Source of the DNA: a virus
Reading direction: 5' to 3' (one strand)
Length of the DNA stretch: 64,000 nucleotides
IMG/VR virus record: IMGVR_UViG_3300027977_000008
Span: 1 to 64,000 of that record
Part shown: piece by piece, positions 2,345 through 59,151 of the stretch
Position numbering within the stretch: position 1 is the first letter of the stretch
Layout: every line of letters begins with the position of its first letter
Made by a program: the position numbers and the translations under genes
The notes under the pieces: model-generated
Database searches by the model: none
What the model was told of the DNA's origin: nothing
What the model saw: only the letters and a program-made list of their open reading frames with translations

Positions 2345-2482
2345 ATGAACGAACTTGACTATCAACCAGACTTCGACTATAATGATACTCGATGGGAAGA
2401 TGATATTTTAACTATATTCAACGAAGAAACTATTCTTGAAAATCTTGACTACCAAACCAATGAACTTCTCAAAAACTTCTGA
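2345..2482 (+). CDS. Very acidic 45-aa protein (absent from track)
   Basis: MNELDYQPDFDYNDTRWEDDILTIFNEETILENLDYQTNELLKNF starts 3 nt after the HicA-like stop. Confidence 0.55.
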   Translation: MNELDYQPDFDYNDTRWEDDILTIFNEETILENLDYQTNELLKNF

Positions 2483-2534
2483 TAATTGTTAAAAGCGCAT
2501 AGTATAATAAAGATTAAAATAAACCATATTAGGT

Positions 2535-2824
2535 TGTGGAAAAGGTTGTGGAAAACTTTATAATCTACTGATATACTCCTAAATGTGATTTTATGCCTTA
2601 TAATGCCCGCTGCCGTTGTTGCCTAAGCGGTCGCACTATAAGACACGCCCATCTCAGAGTTCCTCCCCGTCCAATTATAAGACACACAGCACACTTTTCC
2701 ACAGCAAACTTATAAGTTTTCCACACGTTTTCCCCAGTTCCTTATAAGTTTGCCACAGGGCATTCGTGTTACATTAAGTGATACACAGTGTTCTTCGTTA
2801 TATCTGTGGAAAACTTATAAGTTT
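2535..2824. repeat. Cluster of cyanobacterial-type DnaA boxes with CTTATAAG palindromes (candidate origin or DnaA-binding locus)
   Basis: Perfect TTTTCCACA at 2695-2703 and 2717-2725 (+) and at 2535-2543, 2547-2555 and 2805-2813 (-). One-mismatch boxes at 2728-2736 and 2749-2757. Confidence 0.75.
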
Positions 2825-2888
2825 ACTTATGGGAATGACTTCGCCCTATAATAGACAGTCAACTTACACACCTTCGTTAACACTTAGC

Positions 2889-3050
2889 ATGTCCGTTGAA
2901 CTAATGGTAAATACACTTCGTCTCGGTAACACTGGGCGGGAGATCTTGCACATCCTGGACGCTGTTGCATCCAATGATCAGTTTACCACACCTAGCAGTG
3001 TTTGTCAAGTCGCTTATAAGCAACCCACAGCAGATGTGATCGACTTCTGA
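2889..3050 (+). CDS. Small hypothetical protein
   Basis: MSVELMVNTLRLGNTGREILHILD...; TATAAT at 2847-2852 upstream. The track's longer start at 2778 overlaps the repeat array. Confidence 0.55.
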   Translation: MSVELMVNTLRLGNTGREILHILDAVASNDQFTTPSSVCQVAYKQPTADVIDF

Positions 3051-3059
3051 TAGTTATTC

Positions 3060-3104
3060 ACCCCGTTCGTCATTGTCACTTATGGACAGTGATTTAACGG
3101 GGGT
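3060..3104 (+). other. Long GC-rich stem-loop
   Basis: Outer stem CCCCGTT/AACGGGG; inner stem TCATTGTC (3070-3077)/GACAGTGA (3085-3092). Confidence 0.55.
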
Positions 3105-3462
3105 TCCTTATATTTTGTGCGGGCGATGCCTAAAGCTAAAAACGCTAACTACCCTAACCTACAACGAACCAAAAGAGCGAACAAGATATAAGGCATTTCA
3201 AAAAATTTTTCAGGTATAAAAAGTCAAATTATAAAAATCATAAGAAGGTTTTAGTAATTCTGTAGATCTTTCAATATCATATTCTGACAACATTAATGAG
3301 TAAGACATAAGTAGCAACTTTCTTTTTCTATACCACAATGAATATATGAATTATATTTTTGCAAAATTCTATACAACATAGTTGTCCCCGATTTTGGGAT
3401 CCCAGGACAGATTAAAAATAAAGGTTTACTCATAAATATTTCTAAATATATTTGTACTAAAA

Positions 3463-4227
3463 ATGCATTATAATTTACTATTTAACGGTTGTAGTTTTAC
3501 TTATGGTTCCGAACTTGAAGGTATTAATAACGATAGAGAGCATCAAAGAACACATAGATTTTCTCATTTAGTTGCTGAGCACTATGGTAAAACTTATGAT
3601 AATATATCAATATCTGCAAAGTCCAATGATTGGATTGTAGAACAAACTATAAACTGGTTTGAAGAAGGTAATACTTGTGATTTAGCAGTTATACAATTCA
3701 CAGAAAATATAAGAACTATCATATATGGTGATGGTGATAAAAAAGATACACAACCAAAAGTATATGATATTCTAAGACCAGTATTAAGTACTGATAAATC
3801 TGTATGGGCACATTGTTTCTTAGAGGGCAAATGTATTGAACACCGCATTAAATCAAACATATATTATAAAAACATATACACTGAATATATGGGACAACAA
3901 AAGTATTATAAAAATTTATTTTTTCTTAATAATTATTTTAAAACTAAAAATATTCCTGCAATTTTTTTAAAAATGGAAAAAAATATAAGTGTCGATTTTG
4001 GATGGAAACTTCATTGCGAAAATATAAAAGTAAAAGATATGAAAGGAGATATTATACCGTTTTGGCGTGAAGATAAAGAAAAAATATATTACTGTAAAGA
4101 TTACAGTTACAAATACAAAGAGAAAAAAAATCCGTACTTAGTATTTTTAAATGGAGTTCATCCAAATGAATTTGGTCATCAAAAAATTGCAGATTATATT
4201 ATAGATAATATTTCTAATATATTTTAA
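3463..4227 (+). CDS. SGNH/GDSL-like protein (copy 1)
   Basis: Block I-like FNGCSFTYG and C-terminal GVHPNEFGH; ATAAATA late promoter at 3432-3438. Confidence 0.75.
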   Translation: MHYNLLFNGCSFTYGSELEGINNDREHQRTHRFSHLVAEHYGKTYDNISISAKSNDWIVEQTINWFEEGNTCDLAVIQFTENIRTIIYGDGDKKDTQPKVYDILRPVLSTDKSVWAHCFLEGKCIEHRIKSNIYYKNIYTEYMGQQKYYKNLFFLNNYFKTKNIPAIFLKMEKNISVDFGWKLHCENIKVKDMKGDIIPFWREDKEKIYYCKDYSYKYKEKKNPYLVFLNGVHPNEFGHQKIADYIIDNISNIF

Positions 4228-4229
4228 AT

Positions 4230-5153
4230 TCAAGGAAATAAATCAACAGGGTTTATGGAATGATTTGAAGGAATATTATGATATTTTACGCTATCAATAT
4301 TCCATTTATCATCACATTCCCATTGTTCTGGAAGAAATTTTTGAGTACGATGAAAATATGCATATTCTTGTCTTAATTTTTCTTTAGCAAATTTAATATC
4401 ATCATCAGTAAGTTTACTACTATAATTACCAGGTATCTCAATTTCTAACTTATCAATCGGCACATAAGGCAAATTAAGAAACTGGCACATAAAATTTAAT
4501 TCTGTATCATCATCAGCATTAAAAATTTTTTCGTATACAAAAACACTTGAGTTAGATACTCCCCAAATATCGATACTCCAATTTTGCATAAAATTTGAAC
4601 AAATTTTAGAATAATAATGATATTCTTTTTTATCAGTAAGAAGATGGTAAAAATATTCTTTTGCTTTTTCTTTTCCTGCTACCATGTTACAATAAGAATA
4701 TAATCTTCTAATAGGATCTCTTACCATTTGTATAATTTTAACATCAAAATATTCTGTAATATAATCTCTAAAATGTTTTATTTGATCTAAAGTTAATGTT
4801 TGATACGATTGTGAAAAATCTGCTACTCCATAAAACATTTGTTTCTTAGAAACATAATATTCATAAATTTCTAAAAAATAATTTTTATAATTTTCTAAGG
4901 TTCTTTCTTTATAATATGGTTCAAATGATTTAAACTGATAATTTTCTTTAAACATAAAAAATTTTTCATTTAAAAAATTATTTTTAAATTTTTTTTCGCA
5001 TGAATAATCATTTTGATAAATGTTATTCAAATAATAATGTTCTTTACCATGACCAAAATGAAGTAAGTAAGATTTATAAAAATGAAAATATAATGATGTT
5101 GTACCAGACTTCATCAATCCCGGACATATAACTAATAGAGGTTTCATACTCAA
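4230..5153 (-). CDS. PAPS-dependent sulfotransferase family protein
   Basis: Reverse complement of 5153 downward reads TTG AGT ATG AAA CCT...; the stop is TGA (tca at 4230-4232). It is on the minus strand although the track says +. Contains the 5'-PSB loop PGLMKSGTTSL and the 3'-PB motif RDPIRRLYS. Confidence 0.85.
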   Translation of the reverse strand: MSMKPLLVICPGLMKSGTTSLYFHFYKSYLLHFGHGKEHYYLNNIYQNDYSCEKKFKNNFLNEKFFMFKENYQFKSFEPYYKERTLENYKNYFLEIYEYYVSKKQMFYGVADFSQSYQTLTLDQIKHFRDYITEYFDVKIIQMVRDPIRRLYSYCNMVAGKEKAKEYFYHLLTDKKEYHYYSKICSNFMQNWSIDIWGVSNSSVFVYEKIFNADDDTELNFMCQFLNLPYVPIDKLEIEIPGNYSSKLTDDDIKFAKEKLRQEYAYFHRTQKFLPEQWECDDKWNIDSVKYHNIPSNHSINPVDLFP

Positions 5154-5166
5154 ATAAGAATTGCCT

Positions 5167-5174
5167 TATATATA
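5167..5174. promoter_or_regulatory. Candidate bidirectional late promoter (palindromic TATATATA)
   Basis: One mismatch to T4 late TATAAATA on both strands; about 20 nt from each divergent ATG (5147 minus, 5195 plus). Confidence 0.45.
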
Positions 5175-5194
5175 GAACTGATATAAAAGAAGTA

Positions 5195-5827
5195 ATGCAT
5201 ATCTTGTTTAATGGATGCTCCTTGACTTGGGGAGATGAACTAGAGAATAAATTGGAAGAACGTTTTAGTACGCTTGTTGCTAATCATTATCAAGCAGATT
5301 ATGAAAATATTTCTGATTGTGGTAGAAGTAATGATGCAATAACTCGAACCACGATGCAGTGGTTTGCGAATGGTAATAAAACAGATTTGGCAATCATTCA
5401 ATGGTCAGTCATTTCAAGACTTGAAGGTTATGATGATTTAAATAAAAGGTATATTAATATCACTGTCGATACAAAAACTAAATGGCAAGAATTTTATAGA
5501 AAATATTATCATAATCAACTTGGTGTTGATACACTATTCAAAAATTATTATTTGTTAGAAAATTTTTTCATTCAAAACAATATACCATACTTATTTCTTA
5601 TTCATGATTGTTGGGATAATACTGTTAAAAATACAAATAGTGTTTGGAAGGATTTTATTATAAAAAAAGATTTTCATATTTTACGTGATAATTTACGTGA
5701 TAATTTATGTGATAAAGAAAATATTTTAGACGTTGATATTCATATCAGACCAAACAAAGGTCATCCAAATCCATTAGGTCATCGTACAATAGCAGATTAT
5801 GTTATAGATACTATTGGAACTCTCTAA
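5195..5827 (+). CDS. SGNH/GDSL-like protein (copy 2, paralogue of 3463)
   Basis: FNGCSLTWG, RFSTLVANHY, GRSND and GHPNPLGH align by eye with copy 1. Confidence 0.75.
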   Translation: MHILFNGCSLTWGDELENKLEERFSTLVANHYQADYENISDCGRSNDAITRTTMQWFANGNKTDLAIIQWSVISRLEGYDDLNKRYINITVDTKTKWQEFYRKYYHNQLGVDTLFKNYYLLENFFIQNNIPYLFLIHDCWDNTVKNTNSVWKDFIIKKDFHILRDNLRDNLCDKENILDVDIHIRPNKGHPNPLGHRTIADYVIDTIGTL

Positions 5828-5836
5828 TAGAAATAA

Positions 5837-6226
5837 ATGTTACTCTCTTCTCCAGATGAGTATCTTTATCAATTACAAGCGAATAATAAAGCAGACGCAA
5901 TAAGATTATGGAGAAAAGCAATAAAGGAAACATGGAATACTTGTTGCGCGTATTGCGGTGAAAATAAAGATCTAATGACGATTGATCATATTATCCCACA
6001 ATCCTTAGGTGGCACAAATGAATTAATGAACGTTGTTTGTTGTTGTGAAGATTGTAACCGCGATAAGTCTCATACCGAAGTTGAGATCTGGTATTTTCAA
6101 CAATATTTTTTTGATCAAGAACGTTGGAATAAAATAGAAGAATGGCGAACACCAAAAACAATAGGTTCAAAGAAGAGATATATAAGAGGTAAGAATGGAA
6201 CTTCTACAAGATCAGTAATGCGATGA
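5837..6226 (+). CDS. HNH endonuclease
   Basis: CAYCG...TIDHIIPQSLGG...N...CEDCNRDK. Confidence 0.9.
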   Translation: MLLSSPDEYLYQLQANNKADAIRLWRKAIKETWNTCCAYCGENKDLMTIDHIIPQSLGGTNELMNVVCCCEDCNRDKSHTEVEIWYFQQYFFDQERWNKIEEWRTPKTIGSKKRYIRGKNGTSTRSVMR

Positions 6227-6381
6227 ATTATAACGTATACATCAATCAAATGATTGCATTTAAAAATCTTACAAAAGAAGATGCTGAACAGCGTGCAAAA
6301 GAAATTCAGCAGATGATCTTTGCTGGTATTCCTACTCAATATACAGTTAAACAAATTAAAGTTTTGGAAATTAAATTATGA
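6223..6381 (+). CDS. Small hypothetical protein (52 aa; absent from track)
   Basis: MNYNVYINQMIAFKNLTKEDAEQRAKEIQ...; ATGA-coupled on both sides. Confidence 0.6.
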   Translation: MNYNVYINQMIAFKNLTKEDAEQRAKEIQQMIFAGIPTQYTVKQIKVLEIKL

Positions 6382-6473
6382 ACCCTATTGCAAAACTTAT
6401 TATATGGATCAAAGGTGAATATAAGTTATGGAAACTTCGCAGGGAAGATCCTTACATTTATGAAGATGATTGA
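6378..6473 (+). CDS. 31-aa peptide ending in DPYIY, directly upstream of the carbamoyltransferase (SxtK/DUF5989-like motif)
   Basis: MNPIAKLIIWIKGEYKLWKLRREDPYIYEDD; stop lies 2 nt before the carbamoyltransferase ATG. Confidence 0.55.
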   Translation: MNPIAKLIIWIKGEYKLWKLRREDPYIYEDD

Positions 6474-6475
6474 TC

Positions 6476-7861
6476 ATGATTGGAATAAGTGAAGGTTTTC
6501 ATGATGCTGCAATATCAGTAGTTAATGCTGGTAAGATTAAGTTTGCTGCCCATGCAGAACGTTATTCTAGGGTAAAGCACGATAAGCATTTAAATCTATC
6601 AGTATGTGCAGAAGCATTACGTTATACTGAAGATGATATTGTTGCATTCTATGAACGTCCTTGGTTAAAGCGTACTCGTCATTTTTTTGCAGGACAGTAT
6701 AAGAGTGCATTCAAAGAAAGAAATATCTATCTCACCCCAAATCGATATTATTCACATCATCTCTCCCATGTTGCTGCAGCATTTCAGACATCACCATATT
6801 CAGATGCTGCATGTGTTGTCGTAGACAGTATTGGTGAGTGGGACACTGCTTCAATCTGGCACGCTCAGATGGTGGAGGGATGTGCTAAGTATAAGAAAGT
6901 ATGGTCTAAGAAATATCCAAATTCTATTGGTCTATGGTATTCTTCTTATACAAAATGGGCAGGTTTAAAACCCTTAGACGAAGAATACATCTTTATGGGT
7001 ATGGCAGCATTTGGTAAACCCTTATACGTCGAGCAAGCGCGTAAACTTCTCTCTAGAAATAACCACAAAGGCTTTCCCATCTCTATTGAAGGAAATCCAG
7101 AAGACAACTCAAAAAGCGCCGAGATTGTTCTCCATGAGGAACTGAGAAAAATTTTCAATAGGGCAAGGACAATTAGTAATAATATTTGTTATGGTGGAGG
7201 AGTTGCTCTAAATTGTGTGGTGAACGCTAAGTTACAAAAAGAACATCCGTTTATGTGGATTATGCCTAATCCAGGAGATGCTGGAGCTTCTTTAGGGGCG
7301 GCTTTGTTATCTTATGGTGGTAAAGTCATCTTCACCCCATATTTGGGTGAAACCATTCAAAAAACGATTGATCCAAAAGAAGTTGTTGACGCATTGCTTC
7401 ACAAAGGCATGTGTGGAATTGCGAATGGTCCTGCCGAGTTTGGACCACGGGCTTTGGGTAATAGAAGTCTTCTAGCGGATCCTAGGACGATTCAGATGAA
7501 GGATTTAGTCAATACCATTAAGAAGAGACAAAGGTTTCGTCCATTTGCCCCTGCCATATTAGAAGAACATTGTCAGGACTATTTTCGTATGCCACCAGAC
7601 AGTCGCTATATGTCCTTTGTATACGACTGTAAGCGTCCTGATGAGATCCCAGCATGTGTTCATGTAGATAATACCGCTAGGGTTCAAACAGTTCCTACAT
7701 GGTCTTCCAGCGTCCTTAGAGAAATACTTGAATGTTGGTATGAACGCACTGGATGCCCAGTTCTTCTTAATACATCATTAAATATTCGTGGTATGCCAAT
7801 TGTCAATACTTGGCAAGATGCTCAAGATTTTTCCAAAACTTATCTAGTTGACATATTCTAA
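6476..7861 (+). CDS. O-carbamoyltransferase (NodU/CmcH family)
   Basis: HDAA, ERYSRVKH, HHLSH, GGVALN, EFGPRALGNRS, RPFAP, HVDNTARVQTV and LNTSLN motifs. Confidence 0.93.
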   Translation: MIGISEGFHDAAISVVNAGKIKFAAHAERYSRVKHDKHLNLSVCAEALRYTEDDIVAFYERPWLKRTRHFFAGQYKSAFKERNIYLTPNRYYSHHLSHVAAAFQTSPYSDAACVVVDSIGEWDTASIWHAQMVEGCAKYKKVWSKKYPNSIGLWYSSYTKWAGLKPLDEEYIFMGMAAFGKPLYVEQARKLLSRNNHKGFPISIEGNPEDNSKSAEIVLHEELRKIFNRARTISNNICYGGGVALNCVVNAKLQKEHPFMWIMPNPGDAGASLGAALLSYGGKVIFTPYLGETIQKTIDPKEVVDALLHKGMCGIANGPAEFGPRALGNRSLLADPRTIQMKDLVNTIKKRQRFRPFAPAILEEHCQDYFRMPPDSRYMSFVYDCKRPDEIPACVHVDNTARVQTVPTWSSSVLREILECWYERTGCPVLLNTSLNIRGMPIVNTWQDAQDFSKTYLVDIF

Positions 7862-17600: not shown

Positions 17601-19799
17601 TCTCTATCTGGAAATAGTGTTGGAGCTGTAAGAATTATCAATGCTGGAGGAAATCTCAAGAGCACTGATAATGATCTTATTGCAGTCAATAATACTAATG
17701 GTGTTGGAATTATTAGTGCTACGTATTCTATACCAAATGTAACACTGAAATTACAAACACCATCTTCAGGATTTACTACATCCAATCCACTACCATTTAC
17801 CATTGGAGATCAAGTATTTGTTGAAAATATTGGGGTTTCTACTGGTAAAGGATATAACTCCGCACAGTATGATTATCGCTATTGGACAATTACTGGAGTA
17901 AACACTGCATTTGGACTAGTCAATCAAGCCACAATTTCTTATGCAGTAGATGAAAATCCTGGTGTTCATGATGGATTATTATACGGAAGTGTATCTAACG
18001 TAAAGGATCTTGCTACATTTAGTTTGACACTAAAAGAAGGTGATTTTTATAATGGTGAAGAAGTCTATACTAAAACGTCATCAGCAAAAGTTATTGCTGG
18101 AAATGGTTCCGTAACAGATGTATTGAGAATTGATAGTCTTGTTGGTCTCAATACTGGTGATTTGTTGAAAGGTAGAATTTCAGGTGCTTCTGGAATCATT
18201 GAAAGTATGCAGAGTTACTCTGGATACTTTGATGTTAATTCAACTATTTCAAAAGATTTTGGATGGGAAAGAGATACTGGAAAACTAAATGAATTTTTTC
18301 AAAGAATTCATGATAGTGATTACTATCAACAATTTGCATACTCCCTAAAGAGTAAAGTTGGTATCAGTAGTTGGAGTGAACCAGTTGATAGTTTGGCACA
18401 CATTGCAGGTTTCAAAAAACACTCAGATTTACTTGTCCCATCAGATAGTCTTGCTGGACTCGGTAGTACTAGTGTCTCAACTGGAATTGGATCTCAAGCG
18501 AGTACAATTATATTGGTCAATTCAGACGCTACAAAATTATATTGTAAACATAATTGGGATCTTGTTTATGAAAAAACAAATAGTGATGCAACAATCAGCG
18601 ATAAAATTGTATTCAATTCAAATAGATTTGGTAGTTCTCTAATTTGTAAGTCTAACAGAGTACTTGAAATTGATGACATTAGCCCACAATTTTATTCAGA
18701 TCCCGATATAAGTAGATCTATAGAACTTGATAGTTTTGACTTCAATCAAGCATCTGCAATTAAATATTATGCACAAGTCGTACTTGATACTTCGTTAGGA
18801 ATTGTTTTTAACGAAACACAATACACAGAATTTGTCGTTTCTCATAACGGCACGATATCGTTTAACAACCAATACTCGGATTTATCTGATGCATTTGATT
18901 TAGGTGATTTTAGTACTTCAATTTCTGGAACAACTGTATCAGTTCTATTCTCACCATACAATACAACATTTACTTACGACATAACTTTCTACAAAGAAAA
19001 AATTGAACCAAGTGTTGGTGTTGGAACTACTTCATTTGGACATATTCAGAAAATAGGTATTGCTTCTTTCATAGCAGCATCTGGATCTCCAACACAACAA
19101 ATTATTCAATCCATTAATGCAAACGAATTCAAAAGTGGTAGTGTAATTATTTCTGTTATAGGAGTAAATCAAAAAAATATTGTTGAAGCATCTTTCCTAG
19201 GAATAGGATCTACTGCTCAATATGTTGAGTTTGGTAAGATGGGCAGTGGAGTTGGACTTGGAACATTTAGTGTAGATATGACAGCAACAAATACACTTCA
19301 TCTAAAGTGGTTACCTGCCGCTGGAGTTGGTGTAACGGTTGCTATGCTATCTACCCTAGTTGGTGTTGCAACTACAGTTTCTAGCGGTATTCCAGGCACA
19401 TCCCGTGAAGTTGGAGATGCTTCTTTAAATTGTACTAGAACTACAATTTCTTCTTCGGCATCCCCATCAGCAGAAACTATATCAATTATTTCTTCCAACA
19501 ATTATGTTTCTGTAAAATACCTTGTTGAAATTCATAATACAACGGATAATGTATATTCATTCTTCCATGTTGCAGCAAACATTTATGGTGATGTGATAAA
19601 TTATATAAAATATAATAATCTTTCAACTTCAGTTGATCTTACAAGAGATATACAAAATACTGATATGGTTGTTTCAGGATCTAATGGATTATTGAGATTT
19701 ACTCCAAGAACAAATAAAGCATACATTGTAAGAACATCTGAAATTATGATTGATAACCCAGATGACGTAGCATCTGATGTTGTTATAACCCTTCCATAA
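11601..19799 (+). CDS. gp7: Large baseplate wedge initiator, gp7-like (N-terminal gene; contains a YHYH-like segment)
   Basis: FYKSKGT motif, HSPILGYAYDGSPIYGPY...DLDEYNGRF and DSDYYQQFAYSLKS; lies between gp6 and gp8. Confidence 0.8.
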   Translation: MIETSILKVKINEIIQSQIPEYIDVENPYFGEFLKQYYYSQEYQGGPVDIADNLVEYKGLDYLNPKNLIGFTSLTSYISGVDDTIYVSSTDGWPTQWGLLKVDNEIITYTGIGSTVFTGCVRGFSGIEKNTKTNHPEYLTFTSSGIATHASNAKVENLSNVFLNEFLKKLKKLVLPGFEDRNLYGDLNESNFIRQVKDFYKSKGTEEAFKILFKALYDEGVEMVQPQKFVIKPSDADYIKNDVLVCEVVSGNPIKIEGQTLFQDTTPLQTSGSIYNVEKAIINGSTYYKISISKGTTVGKFLQVGKTFITKTSGAGSTIINIDSTVGFGTTGNLNYEDLQFSYTDKNYTQFLGVSGITTTVGIGSTVFASGFQTYSYEDGDLNTPVYLNIVGTISNFNGSAINQQEGSNINVKTLGIEQKDIRFTSWIYNIPTKYIVNNIISLGSNVYEFVFFSDHILYVGDILDIVDEDNNIIVGTLLQIINNKTIQVNCSALNLSKKHFIRRQLKTNKDYTADVQNVYSAGADVYVASNSIPHWTINPQKRIRNFTTSGVATSTQILITDHHFNDGELVVYKPSSTNGAVSGLSTNQSYYIRKIDDNTVSLAYSLENARRGQHITIFGSSDLSGITTHSLTPSNVGFSTIGAQKLLRKFLVPEYSETKIETIPGGVGLFDNGVEIYSYKSTDQVFYGPIQSVSVLNEGSDFDVINPTRLSVYQDGHTGAGSSVIAHVSGTIKEILVDTEGLDYTSTPTVYISGGNGSAVAEAKMKLVAHQVDFDSTSTGGIVDTVTDKITFPEAHGFKHGEEIVYNTRGTTPIGLGTTPGTLINGSSYFVIKNNDYTISLAETRQKSLVGIATLDITSNGQGLHAFSTKERRLKVDKVYVIENGTFSNKENTTTPVGINTFTDVITISNHGYTSGEELKYSTTELSVGGLNTTSRYYAIKVDNNQFRVSISTSLTNYIGLTSIGSGYHIFNYPPITITLNGPQGITTANATVTPIVRGSISDVHVKVGGDDFGSTIINDNYRPEIRIIEGSNASLRPLIVNGRLDSVIVKSGGSNYFSIPDIIIDGDGFGAKAKANISNGQIISVDVIDQGAGYTTNGTTITASTPGQGAIFSSNLKKWTVNKVEKYAKIGDVSSDDGFYETVRNTKLGNPYVNYYVPRILRTFLGDNGSQHSPILGYAYDGSPIYGPYAFANYTGTGALKYLQPSYAKISGARVNGPNISQYPAGFFVEDFTYVQGTGDLDEYNGRFAITPEYPNGVYAYYTTVSSSVVNDNGSPFNGVRQPVFPYVIGNYYNFTPNIFNYDYNSTQDIDPITLNLVRNTDAYKINDGYEFISNSNKNTTTQSKISKIKSGSVERIDVIESGLDYTVGDRIVFDNSNTSGFGAIAKISKIVGVAVTDITSSITTLSNIDLVCNNRSVTAISTTPHNLSDGSYVSIVGISSTSFNNITGTFRIDVKGVTSGLATSMLATGLTTSVQIIDLASKFSVNDIIKIDSEQFLIMGIDKANNKLNLQRRYNGTTGAAHTNRSEIVNLEREFTYELDKVVSLSTPKNETVFFDASSSVGVGLTYGVGIGTTISYIGAGNSQKSIFIPTRSIFLPNNPLLHGEEVFYSPGAGTSLTYSLNGSTTSPMPSKMYVQKLTKDLIALTNVKTGINSDLSRVFFNANIGIGNSHSFTTRRNIVSCSVKTVNVVVSTASSHRLRPDDVIDMTVVSTATSSVSAIYDPITRFVSIGSSINPRINIVTGDYLEFDVSNASLLNTKLEFFLDQSYNKTFVGSGVSALEITNQFAPGITSAKTTIHFTEQVPSILYYKFTSQTPSKIVEINKDINEYSKIVVHNSKFTGTHSLTTTTNQTFTYNIFEIPERVGYTSASYINYTTNSTNTKGSIAKIDILDGGKNYKSTPKVSASSTTGSSATLRTYGSNIGSIDIVQILDFGYDYLSDKTLQPQAAVPQVITLKDNYSVDTVAITSTGSKYLSAPNLIVYNRKSDIVNTESSIVASLSGNSVGAVRIINAGGNLKSTDNDLIAVNNTNGVGIISATYSIPNVTLKLQTPSSGFTTSNPLPFTIGDQVFVENIGVSTGKGYNSAQYDYRYWTITGVNTAFGLVNQATISYAVDENPGVHDGLLYGSVSNVKDLATFSLTLKEGDFYNGEEVYTKTSSAKVIAGNGSVTDVLRIDSLVGLNTGDLLKGRISGASGIIESMQSYSGYFDVNSTISKDFGWERDTGKLNEFFQRIHDSDYYQQFAYSLKSKVGISSWSEPVDSLAHIAGFKKHSDLLVPSDSLAGLGSTSVSTGIGSQASTIILVNSDATKLYCKHNWDLVYEKTNSDATISDKIVFNSNRFGSSLICKSNRVLEIDDISPQFYSDPDISRSIELDSFDFNQASAIKYYAQVVLDTSLGIVFNETQYTEFVVSHNGTISFNNQYSDLSDAFDLGDFSTSISGTTVSVLFSPYNTTFTYDITFYKEKIEPSVGVGTTSFGHIQKIGIASFIAASGSPTQQIIQSINANEFKSGSVIISVIGVNQKNIVEASFLGIGSTAQYVEFGKMGSGVGLGTFSVDMTATNTLHLKWLPAAGVGVTVAMLSTLVGVATTVSSGIPGTSREVGDASLNCTRTTISSSASPSAETISIISSNNYVSVKYLVEIHNTTDNVYSFFHVAANIYGDVINYIKYNNLSTSVDLTRDIQNTDMVVSGSNGLLRFTPRTNKAYIVRTSEIMIDNPDDVASDVVITLP

Positions 19800-51259: not shown

Positions 51260-52663
51260 ATGTTCAATTCTGCTGCACTGCAGAAGAAGTGGGCTCCTCT
51301 TCTAGAGGCACAAGGTCTTGATTCAATCAAAGACAACCACAGAAGAGCAGTTACTGCCCAACTTCTTGAAAACCAAGAAAGATTTCTAAGAGAAGAGCGT
51401 GCTTTTCTAACTGAAGGACCTCCAACAATTAACACCGACCCTTCTGCAACAGGTAATGCAGGTTTCAGTGGTTCTGGTGCATCACCTGTTGCTGGTTTCG
51501 ATCCAGTTCTAATCTCATTGATTAGACGTGCAATGCCTAACTTGGTCGCCTATGACCTAGCAGGTGTTCAACCAATGAACGGTCCAACAGGTCTTATCTT
51601 TGCGATGAGAACCCGTTACGACAACCAGAACGGTACTGAAGCATTCTTCAACGAACCAGATTCTGCATTCTCTGCACAAAACTCTGCAGCAACTCTTACC
51701 CAAGGCGACTACACTGGTGGTTCCGATGATGGCACCAACGTTGGTTTTGGTACAACTGCACAGTCAGGCACCAATCCATCGATCCTAAATGGTGGCGTAA
51801 ATAATACCTACAACCTAGGTCAAGGTTTTAACACCCAATCACTAGAAACACTTGGTGATAATAGTGCTACTAACGACTTCCGCGAAATGGCTTTCTCTAT
51901 TGAGAAAGTTAGTGTTGCCGCAAAGTCAAGAGCACTTAAAGCTGAGTACTCGCTAGAACTAGCACAAGACCTTAAGGCAATCCACGGTCTTGATGCTGAA
52001 GCTGAACTAGCAAATATCCTCAGCACTGAAATTCTTGCTGAGATCAACCGTGAGATCATCCGTACAATCTACAAGGTTGCTAGAACAGGTGCTCAAACCA
52101 ACGTTGCAACCGCTGGTATATTTGACCTAGACGTTGATTCCAACGGTCGTTGGATGGTTGAGAAGTTCAAGGGACTAATGTTCCAACTTGAGCGTGATGC
52201 AAACGCTATTGCACAAGAAACTCGTAGAGGAAAGGGCAATATTATCCTTTGTTCTGCTGACGTTGCTTCTGCACTTGCTGCTGCTGGTCAACTGGATTAC
52301 ACTCCAGCACTTTCAGCAAACCTACAGGTTGACGACACTGGTAATACCTTCGCTGGTGTTCTAAACGGTCGCTTCAAGGTCTATATCGATCCATTCGCTG
52401 CAAACCTAACCGCAGATCAGTACTACGTCATGGGTTATAAGGGTTCAACTCCTTATGATGCAGGTCTATTCTATTGCCCATACGTTCCTCTTCAGATGGT
52501 TCGTGCAGTTGGTCAGGATAACTTCCAGCCTAAGATTGGATTTAAGACCCGCTACGGCATGGTCGCAAACCCATTCGCTGAAGGAACTGGTGCTGGCGCA
52601 GGTCGCATTGCTGAGAACACCAACCGTTACTACAGAAGAGTAAAGGTACAAAACCTAATGTGA
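51260..52663 (+). CDS. gp23: Major capsid protein
   Basis: LIRRAMPNL, GVQPMNGPTGLIFAMR, KSRALKAEY and FYCPYVPLQ motifs. Confidence 0.98.
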   Translation: MFNSAALQKKWAPLLEAQGLDSIKDNHRRAVTAQLLENQERFLREERAFLTEGPPTINTDPSATGNAGFSGSGASPVAGFDPVLISLIRRAMPNLVAYDLAGVQPMNGPTGLIFAMRTRYDNQNGTEAFFNEPDSAFSAQNSAATLTQGDYTGGSDDGTNVGFGTTAQSGTNPSILNGGVNNTYNLGQGFNTQSLETLGDNSATNDFREMAFSIEKVSVAAKSRALKAEYSLELAQDLKAIHGLDAEAELANILSTEILAEINREIIRTIYKVARTGAQTNVATAGIFDLDVDSNGRWMVEKFKGLMFQLERDANAIAQETRRGKGNIILCSADVASALAAAGQLDYTPALSANLQVDDTGNTFAGVLNGRFKVYIDPFAANLTADQYYVMGYKGSTPYDAGLFYCPYVPLQMVRAVGQDNFQPKIGFKTRYGMVANPFAEGTGAGAGRIAENTNRYYRRVKVQNLM

Positions 52664-57446: not shown

Positions 57447-59151
57447 GTTTAAAAAAATTTGTTATAAGAATTTTCTTTCATCAGGAAACCAGTTTACATC
57501 AATCAAACTAAACCAAAATACCAACACTTTAATTGTTGGACAGAATGGTGCTGGTAAGTCAACTATTCTTGATGCTTTGTGTTTTTCGTTGTTTAATAAA
57601 CCATTCAGGAAGATCAACAAAAATCAAATTATCAACTCATCCAATGAAAAAGATTGTGTAGTTGAGATTAATTTTAATGTAAACAATAACGAATATAAAG
57701 TTGTTCGTGGCATCAAACCTGGTATTTTTGAAATTTACCAGAATGGTAAAAAGATGAATGAAGATGCTTCTGCACAGGATCAGCAAAAGATGCTTGAGAA
57801 TAATATTCTCAAGTTAAACTACAAGTCATTTACTCAGATCGTTATTCTTGGTAGTGCCTCGTTTGTCCCATTTATGCAGCTTCCTGCAGCACATAGACGA
57901 GAAGTGATTGAGGACCTTCTTGATATCAAAGTTTTTTCTTCAATGTCTGAGATCTTGAAGAACAAGATTAAAGAATCTAAAGAAACTGTCAAGACATTGG
58001 AGTTGAAAAAAAAAGGGATTGCTGATAAAATTATTATGCAGCAAAACTTTATCAAGCAAATTGAAGAGACTGGGCAGAATGATATCAAAAATAAACAAAC
58101 CCAAATTACTGAGTGTGAAAGTGAAGTTTCTAAGTACAATGAAAGTGTCTTCAGTCTTTTACATGAAGTTGAAAACAAACAACAAGAAATAGAAAAGTAC
58201 TCGGATGCTTCAGATACTCTTCGTAAACTTGGAACTTTCCGAGGTAAGATTGGAAATAAGAAACAAAACTCCAGTGATGTTTTGGAGTTTTTTAAAGAAC
58301 ATTCGGTTTGCCCAACATGTACACAAACAATTGAAGAAACGTTTCGTGTAAATAAAACAGAAGAGCTCCAGCAAGTCCTAAGTTCTTATGAAAGTAATCT
58401 TCAAGAAATTGAAGACACAATCAAAAAAGAAGAAGAACGTGAAAAAGCATTTTTCGGACTTCAAATGGAGATTACAAAACTACAAAATGAAATTTCTCAG
58501 ATCAACATTCGTATTGCTAACTCAACTAAATCAAAATCAATTATTGAGAAAGAAATTCAAATTATTACCACAAGACTTGAAAATAAAAATACTGAACACG
58601 AAAAACTAAGCGAATACAAATCCAATTTAAAACAACTACTGATAGACCTTGAACATCTCAAAGATGATTATGGATACTATATTCAAGCAAATGTTCTACT
58701 CAAAGATGATGGTGTAAAGAGTAGTATTATTAAAAAGTATTTGCCACTAATCAATCAGCAAGTCAATAAGTATTTACAGATGATGGACTTCTTCATAAAC
58801 TTTACGTTAGATGAAGAATTCAACGAAAAAATTAAAACTCCAATTCACGAAAACTTTTCTTATCCTTCTTTTTCTGAAGGTGAAAAGATGAGAATTGATT
58901 TATCATTATTGTTTACTTGGCGAGAAATTGCAAGATTGAAGAACAGTGTTTCCACAAATCTTTTGATCATGGACGAAGTATTTGATAGTTCTCTAGATGG
59001 TTTGGGAACAGATGAATTCTTCAAAATTATTCGACATGTGGTTAGCAATGCTAATATCTTTATCATTTCTCATAAAAATGAATTGCACGAAAAGTTTGAA
59101 AATGTGCTAGAATTCCATAAGGTCAAGGGTTTCAGTCAATTGAAACCTTGA
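57439..59151 (+). CDS. gp46: Recombination ATPase subunit (Rad50/SbcC-like)
   Basis: GQNGAGKS, CPTC zinc hook, FSEGEK and MDEVFD motifs. Confidence 0.96.
   Translation: MIEFKKICYKNFLSSGNQFTSIKLNQNTNTLIVGQNGAGKSTILDALCFSLFNKPFRKINKNQIINSSNEKDCVVEINFNVNNNEYKVVRGIKPGIFEIYQNGKKMNEDASAQDQQKMLENNILKLNYKSFTQIVILGSASFVPFMQLPAAHRREVIEDLLDIKVFSSMSEILKNKIKESKETVKTLELKKKGIADKIIMQQNFIKQIEETGQNDIKNKQTQITECESEVSKYNESVFSLLHEVENKQQEIEKYSDASDTLRKLGTFRGKIGNKKQNSSDVLEFFKEHSVCPTCTQTIEETFRVNKTEELQQVLSSYESNLQEIEDTIKKEEEREKAFFGLQMEITKLQNEISQINIRIANSTKSKSIIEKEIQIITTRLENKNTEHEKLSEYKSNLKQLLIDLEHLKDDYGYYIQANVLLKDDGVKSSIIKKYLPLINQQVNKYLQMMDFFINFTLDEEFNEKIKTPIHENFSYPSFSEGEKMRIDLSLLFTWREIARLKNSVSTNLLIMDEVFDSSLDGLGTDEFFKIIRHVVSNANIFIISHKNELHEKFENVLEFHKVKGFSQLKP

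Follow-up and report, generated by a model that had tools for sequence, protein, structure and literature searches.

Clustered DnaA boxes in a T4-like cyanomyovirus and their probable recognition by host DnaA

Textbooks present the T4-type phages as viruses that replicate without regard to the host initiator. The review of T4 replication describes the origins as promoter-primed R-loops and does not mention DnaA anywhere (PMC3016281), which agrees with the statement of the sequence-only reading of the present DNA that T4 initiates without this protein. In oriF and oriG of T4 a promoter is accompanied by a downstream unwinding element and replication is primed from an R-loop, and oriE consists of iterons (PMC3016281). 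Clusters of DnaA boxes are well known on chromosomes, on plasmids and on P1 (PMC4980987, PMC5835720). Boxes for the host DnaA are found in the origins of iteron replicons, such as oriR of the phage-plasmid P1 and the origins of F, RK2 and pSC101 (PMC4980987), while datA and DARS are non-origin clusters, which titrate DnaA or alter its nucleotide state (PMC5835720). The datA locus of E. coli, which titrates DnaA, has two consensus boxes and four boxes with one misfit, and its extra copies delay initiation (PMC5835720). In cyanobacteria the DnaA box is TTTTCCACA (PMC4674748), the same consensus that the sequence-only reading had named. Unwinding of the oriC type involves a box or a pair of boxes, followed by at least three DnaA-trios (3′-GAT-5′ type) within 16 bp (PMC8287927). 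No paper on cyanophages and DnaA boxes was found in the literature.

The phage array described here resembles picocyanobacterial oriC, which is located between thrC and dnaN and contains the boxes and DnaA-trios of the "basal unwinding system" (PMC8287927), in its TTTTCCACA boxes, the ..CCACAGG flanks, the abutting or 11-bp-phased tandem boxes and the mixed orientations. On the other hand, oriC has from zero to two exact boxes, and its trios form a clear CTACTACTAC run into an AT-rich stretch, while the phage array has five exact boxes but neither conserved trios nor a distinctive AT-rich element, and is not located beside dnaN or dnaA. The array is like datA in that consensus and one-misfit boxes, in comparable or higher number, are clustered apart from an unwinding element; however, datA is located on the chromosome and needs an IHF site, while the array is carried by a lytic phage. 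Similarly to P1 oriR, F, RK2 and pSC101, it places host DnaA boxes on a mobile element, and the position and orientation of the boxes matter in those origins. In contrast to the array, which has neither separate iterons nor a nearby Rep-like gene, in those origins the boxes are accompanied by iterons, a Rep protein encoded by the element and a DUE. With the T4 origins the array shares the virus type and the replisome genes, and both are non-coding, bear promoters or promoter-like sites, are dispensable and are not conserved across relatives, but the T4 origins have MotA-dependent promoters and no DnaA boxes.

Genomic context and layout of the array

The DNA analyzed here, called the window, comprises the initial 64 kb of an IMG/VR record of 171,943 bp. 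The proteins of this record include T4-type baseplate, sheath and major head proteins and a gp46-like protein, as well as those of psbA and psbD, and the GC content of the phage genome is ∼33–35%, which identifies it as a T4-like cyanomyovirus. The boxes occupy a non-coding gap of ∼400 bp, with a HicA-like ORF and a 45-aa ORF ending at 2482 on the left and a small ORF starting at 2889 on the right. The placement of the array at the early/late boundary in the sequence-only reading was right only roughly, because the array indeed follows a run of small early-type ORFs, but the gp25/gp6 baseplate genes are located ∼6.5 kb further downstream, and a hypervariable island lies between them:

3463–7861: hypervariable island
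3463–4227 and 5195–5827: DUF6071-like paralogs, of which one relative (L010) has up to six in tandem
4230–5153, minus strand: sulfotransferase-like gene, within a 26% GC patch of the island
5837–6226: HNH endonuclease gene of the island
6470–7861: carbamoyltransferase gene of the island

The ORFs neighboring the array are HicA-like, Kyano_Gp96, DUF7249 and DUF6071-like, with no Rep-like gene among them. Searches of the window for tRNAs and Rfam families gave no matches, and Megablast against isolate phages gave almost no matches for the array region. The ORF at 2162–2341 is similar to HicA toxins (PF07927, E=1e-8; phrog_353 "toxin"), and the acidic 45-aa ORF at 2345–2482 begins four bases after it and has no family match. 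Both are kept in close relatives, and in this lytic cyanophage they may form a small pair of a toxin and its partner. On the other side of the array, two ORFs were considered as partners of the boxes and were rejected, as neither tracks them: the ORF at 2889–3050, whose match in S-PM2 is weak (E=0.005) and whose codon-position conservation (0.876/0.903/0.849) is weakly coding-like, and the ORF at 3073–3219, which is also present in the array-less S-SSM7. In and around the latter ORF, at 3112–3225, there is a block of ∼90–110 bp, which is conserved at the DNA level across cyanomyovirus genera. This block is present in S-SSM7, P-TIM68, Sf-FS3, S-SCSM2R and Bellamy, mostly without annotation there. 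Its translation gives a short peptide, ..LTYxxxKERxxY.., in which CGRC weakly resembles a zinc ribbon.

The array and the elements around it are as follows:

2479–2508, plus strand: rightward sigma-70-like promoter-like site, CTGATA-18-TATAAT, a consensus match only, with the TATAAT kept in relatives
2484–2530: AT-rich stretch beside the left sub-array, with eight NTN triplets in a row, starting 11 nt from box 2535
2535–2555, minus strand: left sub-array, two exact tandem boxes (AGGTTGTGGAAA twice), 12 bp from start to start
2607–2646: conserved block between the sub-arrays, with a short inverted repeat (CCGCT...AGCGG) and TATAAGACAC; alignment columns ∼160–200 kept in six relatives
2695–2757, plus strand: central sub-array, exact boxes at 2695 and 2717 and one-mismatch boxes at 2728 (TTTTCCCCA) and 2749 (TTTGCCACA), all in one orientation, with spacing of 22, 11 and 21 bp
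2709–3020: companion motif CTTATAAG, starting at 2709, 2741, 2814 and 3013, in a TATAAG-rich zone
2805–2813, minus strand: exact box opposing the central sub-array, with CTTATAAG directly after it; part of a 23-nt inverted repeat whose other arm is 2703–2725
2980–3008, minus strand: leftward sigma-70-like promoter-like site directed toward the array, TTGACA-17-TAAACT with TG, a strong match but a consensus match only
2982–2990, plus strand: outlying one-mismatch box TTTACCACA, within ORF 2889–3050 and within the −10/spacer of the leftward promoter-like site

The five exact boxes (2535 and 2547 on the minus strand, 2695 and 2717 on the plus strand, and 2805 on the minus strand; span 2535–2813) and the three boxes with one mismatch (2728, 2749 and 2982) were all found at the positions at which the sequence-only reading had placed them. 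Beyond the array there is no further exact TTTTCCACA in the 64-kb window, and there are two in the 171,943-bp genome (72753 and 153123), each isolated and located in coding sequence. As for the genome-wide count against expectation, which that reading had proposed as a check, the chance of finding at least five exact boxes in any 290-bp window genome-wide is ∼1e-9 by a Poisson estimate. Over the whole window, 41 one-mismatch boxes were found versus 37.7 expected, which is no enrichment and indicates that the signal is in the cluster and not in the genome. Among phage boxes, same-orientation neighbors showed spacing peaks at 11–12 and 21–22 bp, as expected for DnaA oligomers along one face of the helix. 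Abutting pairs of boxes are also present in phage loci, and tandem, convergent and divergent orientations all occur.

The palindrome CTTATAAG immediately precedes two boxes of the central sub-array, and overall it abuts three boxes of the array. The region 2480–3250 contains four of the 11 copies of CTTATAAG in the genome (0.05 expected) and 13 of the 137 genomic TATAAG sequences (0.61 expected). In independent loci (L225–L303) TATAAG was enriched 3.8-fold near arrays, as compared to ∼2-fold for TATAAT and TATAAA. The CTTATAAG/TATAAG motif could be a −10-like element or a site for another factor.

Host DnaA boxes and the candidate binder

The host-family genomes were fetched via psbA, and the thrC–dnaN gap was taken as oriC in four picocyanobacteria. 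The sequence-only reading had raised the question of whether the host might lack dnaA or use another box; the data showed that dnaA is present in the fetched host-family genomes and that the thrC–dnaN oriC has the same type of box with the same flanks. These gaps contain abutting pairs, such as TTTTCCACG/aTTTCCACAGG, and downstream of these pairs come CTACTACTAC trios and then an AT-rich run. The phage array matches this oriC in its extended motif AGTTTTCCACAGG, in its abutting pairs and in its phasing of 11–12 and 21–22 bp. The number of exact boxes per thrC–dnaN gap was from zero to two, versus five exact and two near-exact boxes within 280 bp in the phage. The host genomes contained 16–29 exact boxes in total, which is about equal to a control word, and no dense cluster of exact boxes was found in the sampled host genomes. 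The count of perfect boxes in the phage array exceeds that of every sampled host locus. Capture of a host locus by the phage was considered and rejected, because no comparable array is present in the sampled host genomes.

The picocyanobacteria also have a conserved convergent pair of exact boxes with a 35–36 bp spacer (L215 2002–2054 in G001, L217 1947–1999 in G002, G017:C1:91503–91556 and G020:C5:315243–315295). In G001 this pair is flanked by genes of the DUF2811 and DUF1818 families, distant from oriC, and it may be a conserved DnaA-regulated site of the host.

The features of the boxes suggest that host DnaA is by far the likeliest binder of the array, and we consider this assignment highly probable. 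The match of the boxes and their flanks to host oriC, the absence of a DnaA domain IV among the proteins encoded in the phage genome and the absence of a phage ORF that tracks the arrays all point to this protein. The extended consensus of phage boxes is A-G-TTTTCCACA-G-G (139 distinct instances), and little information lies beyond it, which fits a monomeric reader of 9–12 bp and the flanks in host oriC. Alternatively, a phage factor or another host regulator could bind the repeats, and the match to the DnaA box would then be coincidental or convergent. Direct repeats with an 11-bp period would also suit response regulators of the OmpR type, and the second motif, CTTATAAG, co-clusters with the boxes. 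However, nine of nine positions are those of the cyanobacterial DnaA box, the flanks and abutting pairs are as in host oriC, and the boxes occur in tandem, convergent and divergent arrangements. When the ORFs of four array-bearing genomes were compared with those of three array-less ones, no phage ORF tracked the arrays, and only psbD pieces and antisense shadows did, which makes a phage-specific binder unlikely; the small ORFs neighboring the array also gave no matches to DNA-binding domains. Recognition of the repeats by a protein other than DnaA is thus improbable. Hence, these data suggest that the array at 2535–2813 is very probably a docking site for the host initiator, in which domain IV of host DnaA would bind the boxes and phased oligomers would form.

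Conservation and spread of the arrays among viruses

A scan of viral contigs with CTTATAAGTTTTCCACA returned 36 contigs, most of which have three to nine exact boxes spread over only a few hundred bases, and tblastn showed that they are syntenic cyanomyovirus loci. In the alignment of the gap from seven close relatives, the box columns were 94.7% identical and 79% of them were invariant, while the corresponding values for the remaining gap were 84.3% and 50%. The block 2689–2760 was nearly invariant across the seven relatives, all nine columns of box 2805 were invariant, and the left boxes were shifted in two relatives yet were still boxes. Perfect boxes also recur in divergent lineages, though their surroundings cannot be aligned. 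Small arrays are present in the equivalent region of the isolates S-PM2 (19231–19264), Syn9 (52553–52597) and P-TIM68 (58194–58216), while P-SSM2, P-SSM4, P-HM2 and S-SSM7 have no arrays anywhere in their genomes. In an unbiased sample anchored on a neighboring conserved gene, two or more boxes occurred together in six of the 46 loci with enough upstream sequence. These data show that the array is conserved and syntenic in related cyanophages, which was among the checks proposed in the sequence-only reading, and that it is widespread but optional among relatives.

The patchy distribution of the arrays could suggest a chance cluster, or a neutral remnant of captured host DNA without function. 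This explanation can hardly be correct, given the chance probability of ∼1e-9, the stronger conservation of the boxes than of their flanks, their turnover during which they stay perfect, and the recurrence of arrays in divergent genera whose surrounding sequences do not align.

The convergent pair TTTTCCACA-N2-6-TGTGGAAAA was found in more than 120 viral contigs, and 54 of the 79 contigs fetched were relatives of the phage. In the host-family genomes, a convergent pair with N of up to 30 was found in one of 81, and that one was an unrelated long palindrome. Convergent TTTTCCACA pairs, some of them with three to five boxes, were also observed in viral contigs unrelated to the phage, which were L237, L250, L255, L259 and L297, with 55–63% GC, and L241. 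Among these unrelated box-bearing contigs, one has a portal gene and another, of 176 kb, has HNH/NUMOD and MIF4G-domain genes. DnaA-box arrays may therefore not be confined to cyanomyoviruses.

In S-PM2, short direct and inverted repeats (GATTTCTTAAGATTTAA units; L051 2950–3130, corresponding to ∼19450–19630) are located in a gene-free region ∼200–350 bp downstream of the boxes. The tRNA features placed over the boxes of S-PM2 in RefSeq also overlap CDSs in that table, and are probably unreliable. Lineage-specific direct repeats beside arrays were also observed in L015, L098, L101 and L116.

Origin, DnaA sink and promoter gating

The sequence-only reading had described the array as oriC-like, and this description was not supported, because the array has no DnaA-trios and its AT-rich flank is unexceptional. 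The trios, which are plain in host oriC, were not enriched beside 371 phage boxes (mean run of 2.22 versus 2.35 on the control side), and the run of eight NTN triplets beside box 2535 is loose, contains only two strict trio triplets and is not conserved. The AT-rich stretch at 2484–2530 noted in that reading does exist, and its AT content reaches 82.5% over 40 bp, but it is ordinary for this genome (empirical p=0.31). The array region contains no separate iterons (at least three direct repeats of ∼17–22 bp), and only box-containing units repeat. The GC skew, which had also been suggested as a check, was uninformative, as no switch was seen and the cumulative skew rose monotonically in the phage and in six isolates, which were Syn9, S-PM2, P-TIM68, P-SSM4, P-HM2 and S-SSM7. 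Because nearly all genes run one way, such a monotonic skew is weak evidence either way. Parts of a true oriC-type origin are missing from the array.

The array could instead act as an accessory, non-canonical origin, in which DnaA oligomers would distort or open nearby DNA, or would cause transcripts of the flanking promoters to stall as an R-loop, and gp59, gp41 and gp61 would then assemble, as at T4 oriF and oriG. Several features are consistent with this explanation. The array is a single-copy and syntenic locus free of genes, its boxes are helically phased, and their abutting pairs resemble those of oriC. Promoter-like sites are directed toward the array from both sides. An unusually AT-rich flank (p≤0.05) was found in 14% of 119 clusters as compared to 5% expected, and a recurring AAATGTATTAAAAAA-type AT-rich element or iteron-like direct repeats are located by the boxes in several other lineages, which favors an origin there. 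The T4 origins are likewise dispensable and not conserved (PMC3016281), and the cyanomyovirus origin is unmapped, the single theta origin of Syn9 being a prediction only (PMC2984593). On the other hand, the trios are not enriched at the phage boxes, the AT-rich flank in the window is ordinary, the GC skew gives no origin signal, and the arrays are absent from four isolates and present in only six of 46 unbiased syntenic loci. In addition, DnaB, which is the partner normally recruited by DnaA, is not used by T4-type replisomes. An accessory origin is therefore rather doubtful, and it is possible, though unlikely, that in several genera of T4-like cyanophages the phage's own replication is started or timed via host DnaA at the array.

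The explanation that we favor, to which we give about an even chance, is that the array is a non-origin DnaA-box cluster, similar to datA in its logic, which would serve as a DnaA sink, in promoter gating, or in both. The lack of DnaA-trios and of a distinctive unwinding element, and the optional presence of the array among relatives, suggest a non-origin cluster, and boxes without an unwinding module are the mark that distinguishes the datA type from origins, which favors the sink or regulatory role. The most informative comparison is that with the host, whose oriC combines few exact boxes with a clear unwinding module, while the array has many boxes and no such module. Of the two alternatives offered in the sequence-only reading, which were an origin assisted by host DnaA and a datA-like decoy, the datA-like or regulatory one is somewhat better supported. 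The tests of the origin were negative or uninformative.

As a sink, the array, whose boxes are more numerous and better than those of host oriC, would draw DnaA away from the host origin as phage genomes multiply, and the delay in host initiation proposed here is the same effect as that of extra copies of datA. A single infecting genome has few sites, however, so that a sink would matter only after replication, which argues against it. A pure sink also needs neither a constant syntenic location nor boxes in ordered phase, and these features of the array likewise count against it.

In promoter gating, DnaA bound to the array would control the promoter-like elements that overlap or flank it, which are TGGAAA-16-TATAAT, CTTATAAG together with a box, and the sites at 2479–2508 and 3008–2980, and early phage transcription would thereby be tied to the level of the host initiator. 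The rightward site at 2479–2508 would put boxes 2535 and 2547 at about +20 to +40, the TTGACA block of the leftward site is invariant in relatives, and in some promoter-like sites the box itself is the −35-like hexamer (TGGAAA-16-TATAAT, a pattern match only). However, the overlaps of boxes with promoters are lineage-specific, TATAAG accompanies only 40 of 381 boxes at the fixed offset, and the TATAAT at 2559 is not conserved in the aligned relatives, which argues against promoter gating. The orientation of promoters around 43 arrays, judged by consensus matches, followed no single pattern. The leftward site at 2980–3008 on the minus strand is located inside ORF 2889–3050, though nearly all genes run rightward. 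A non-coding RNA starting from this site was considered and rejected, as the fold of 2975–2815 on the minus strand was no better than that of shuffled sequences (z=−0.85).

In Prochlorococcus and Synechococcus, DNA replication is coupled to the alternation of day and night. The conserved array of perfect boxes, which is richer in consensus sites than host oriC, implies that many abundant ocean viruses probably engage DnaA physically, and its candidate uses are to starve the host origin, to gate early phage promoters or to help phage replication start. The array is short and single-copy, and it is present in the cultured S-PM2, Syn9 and P-TIM68, which makes these uses directly testable. If the origin explanation were true, a T4-type virus would for the first time have an origin that depends on DnaA; the origin of the most abundant myoviruses of the ocean would thereby be located, and phage replication would be linked to the light-gated cell cycle of the host. 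Each of the candidate uses would constitute a new contact between phages and the host cell cycle in Prochlorococcus and Synechococcus.
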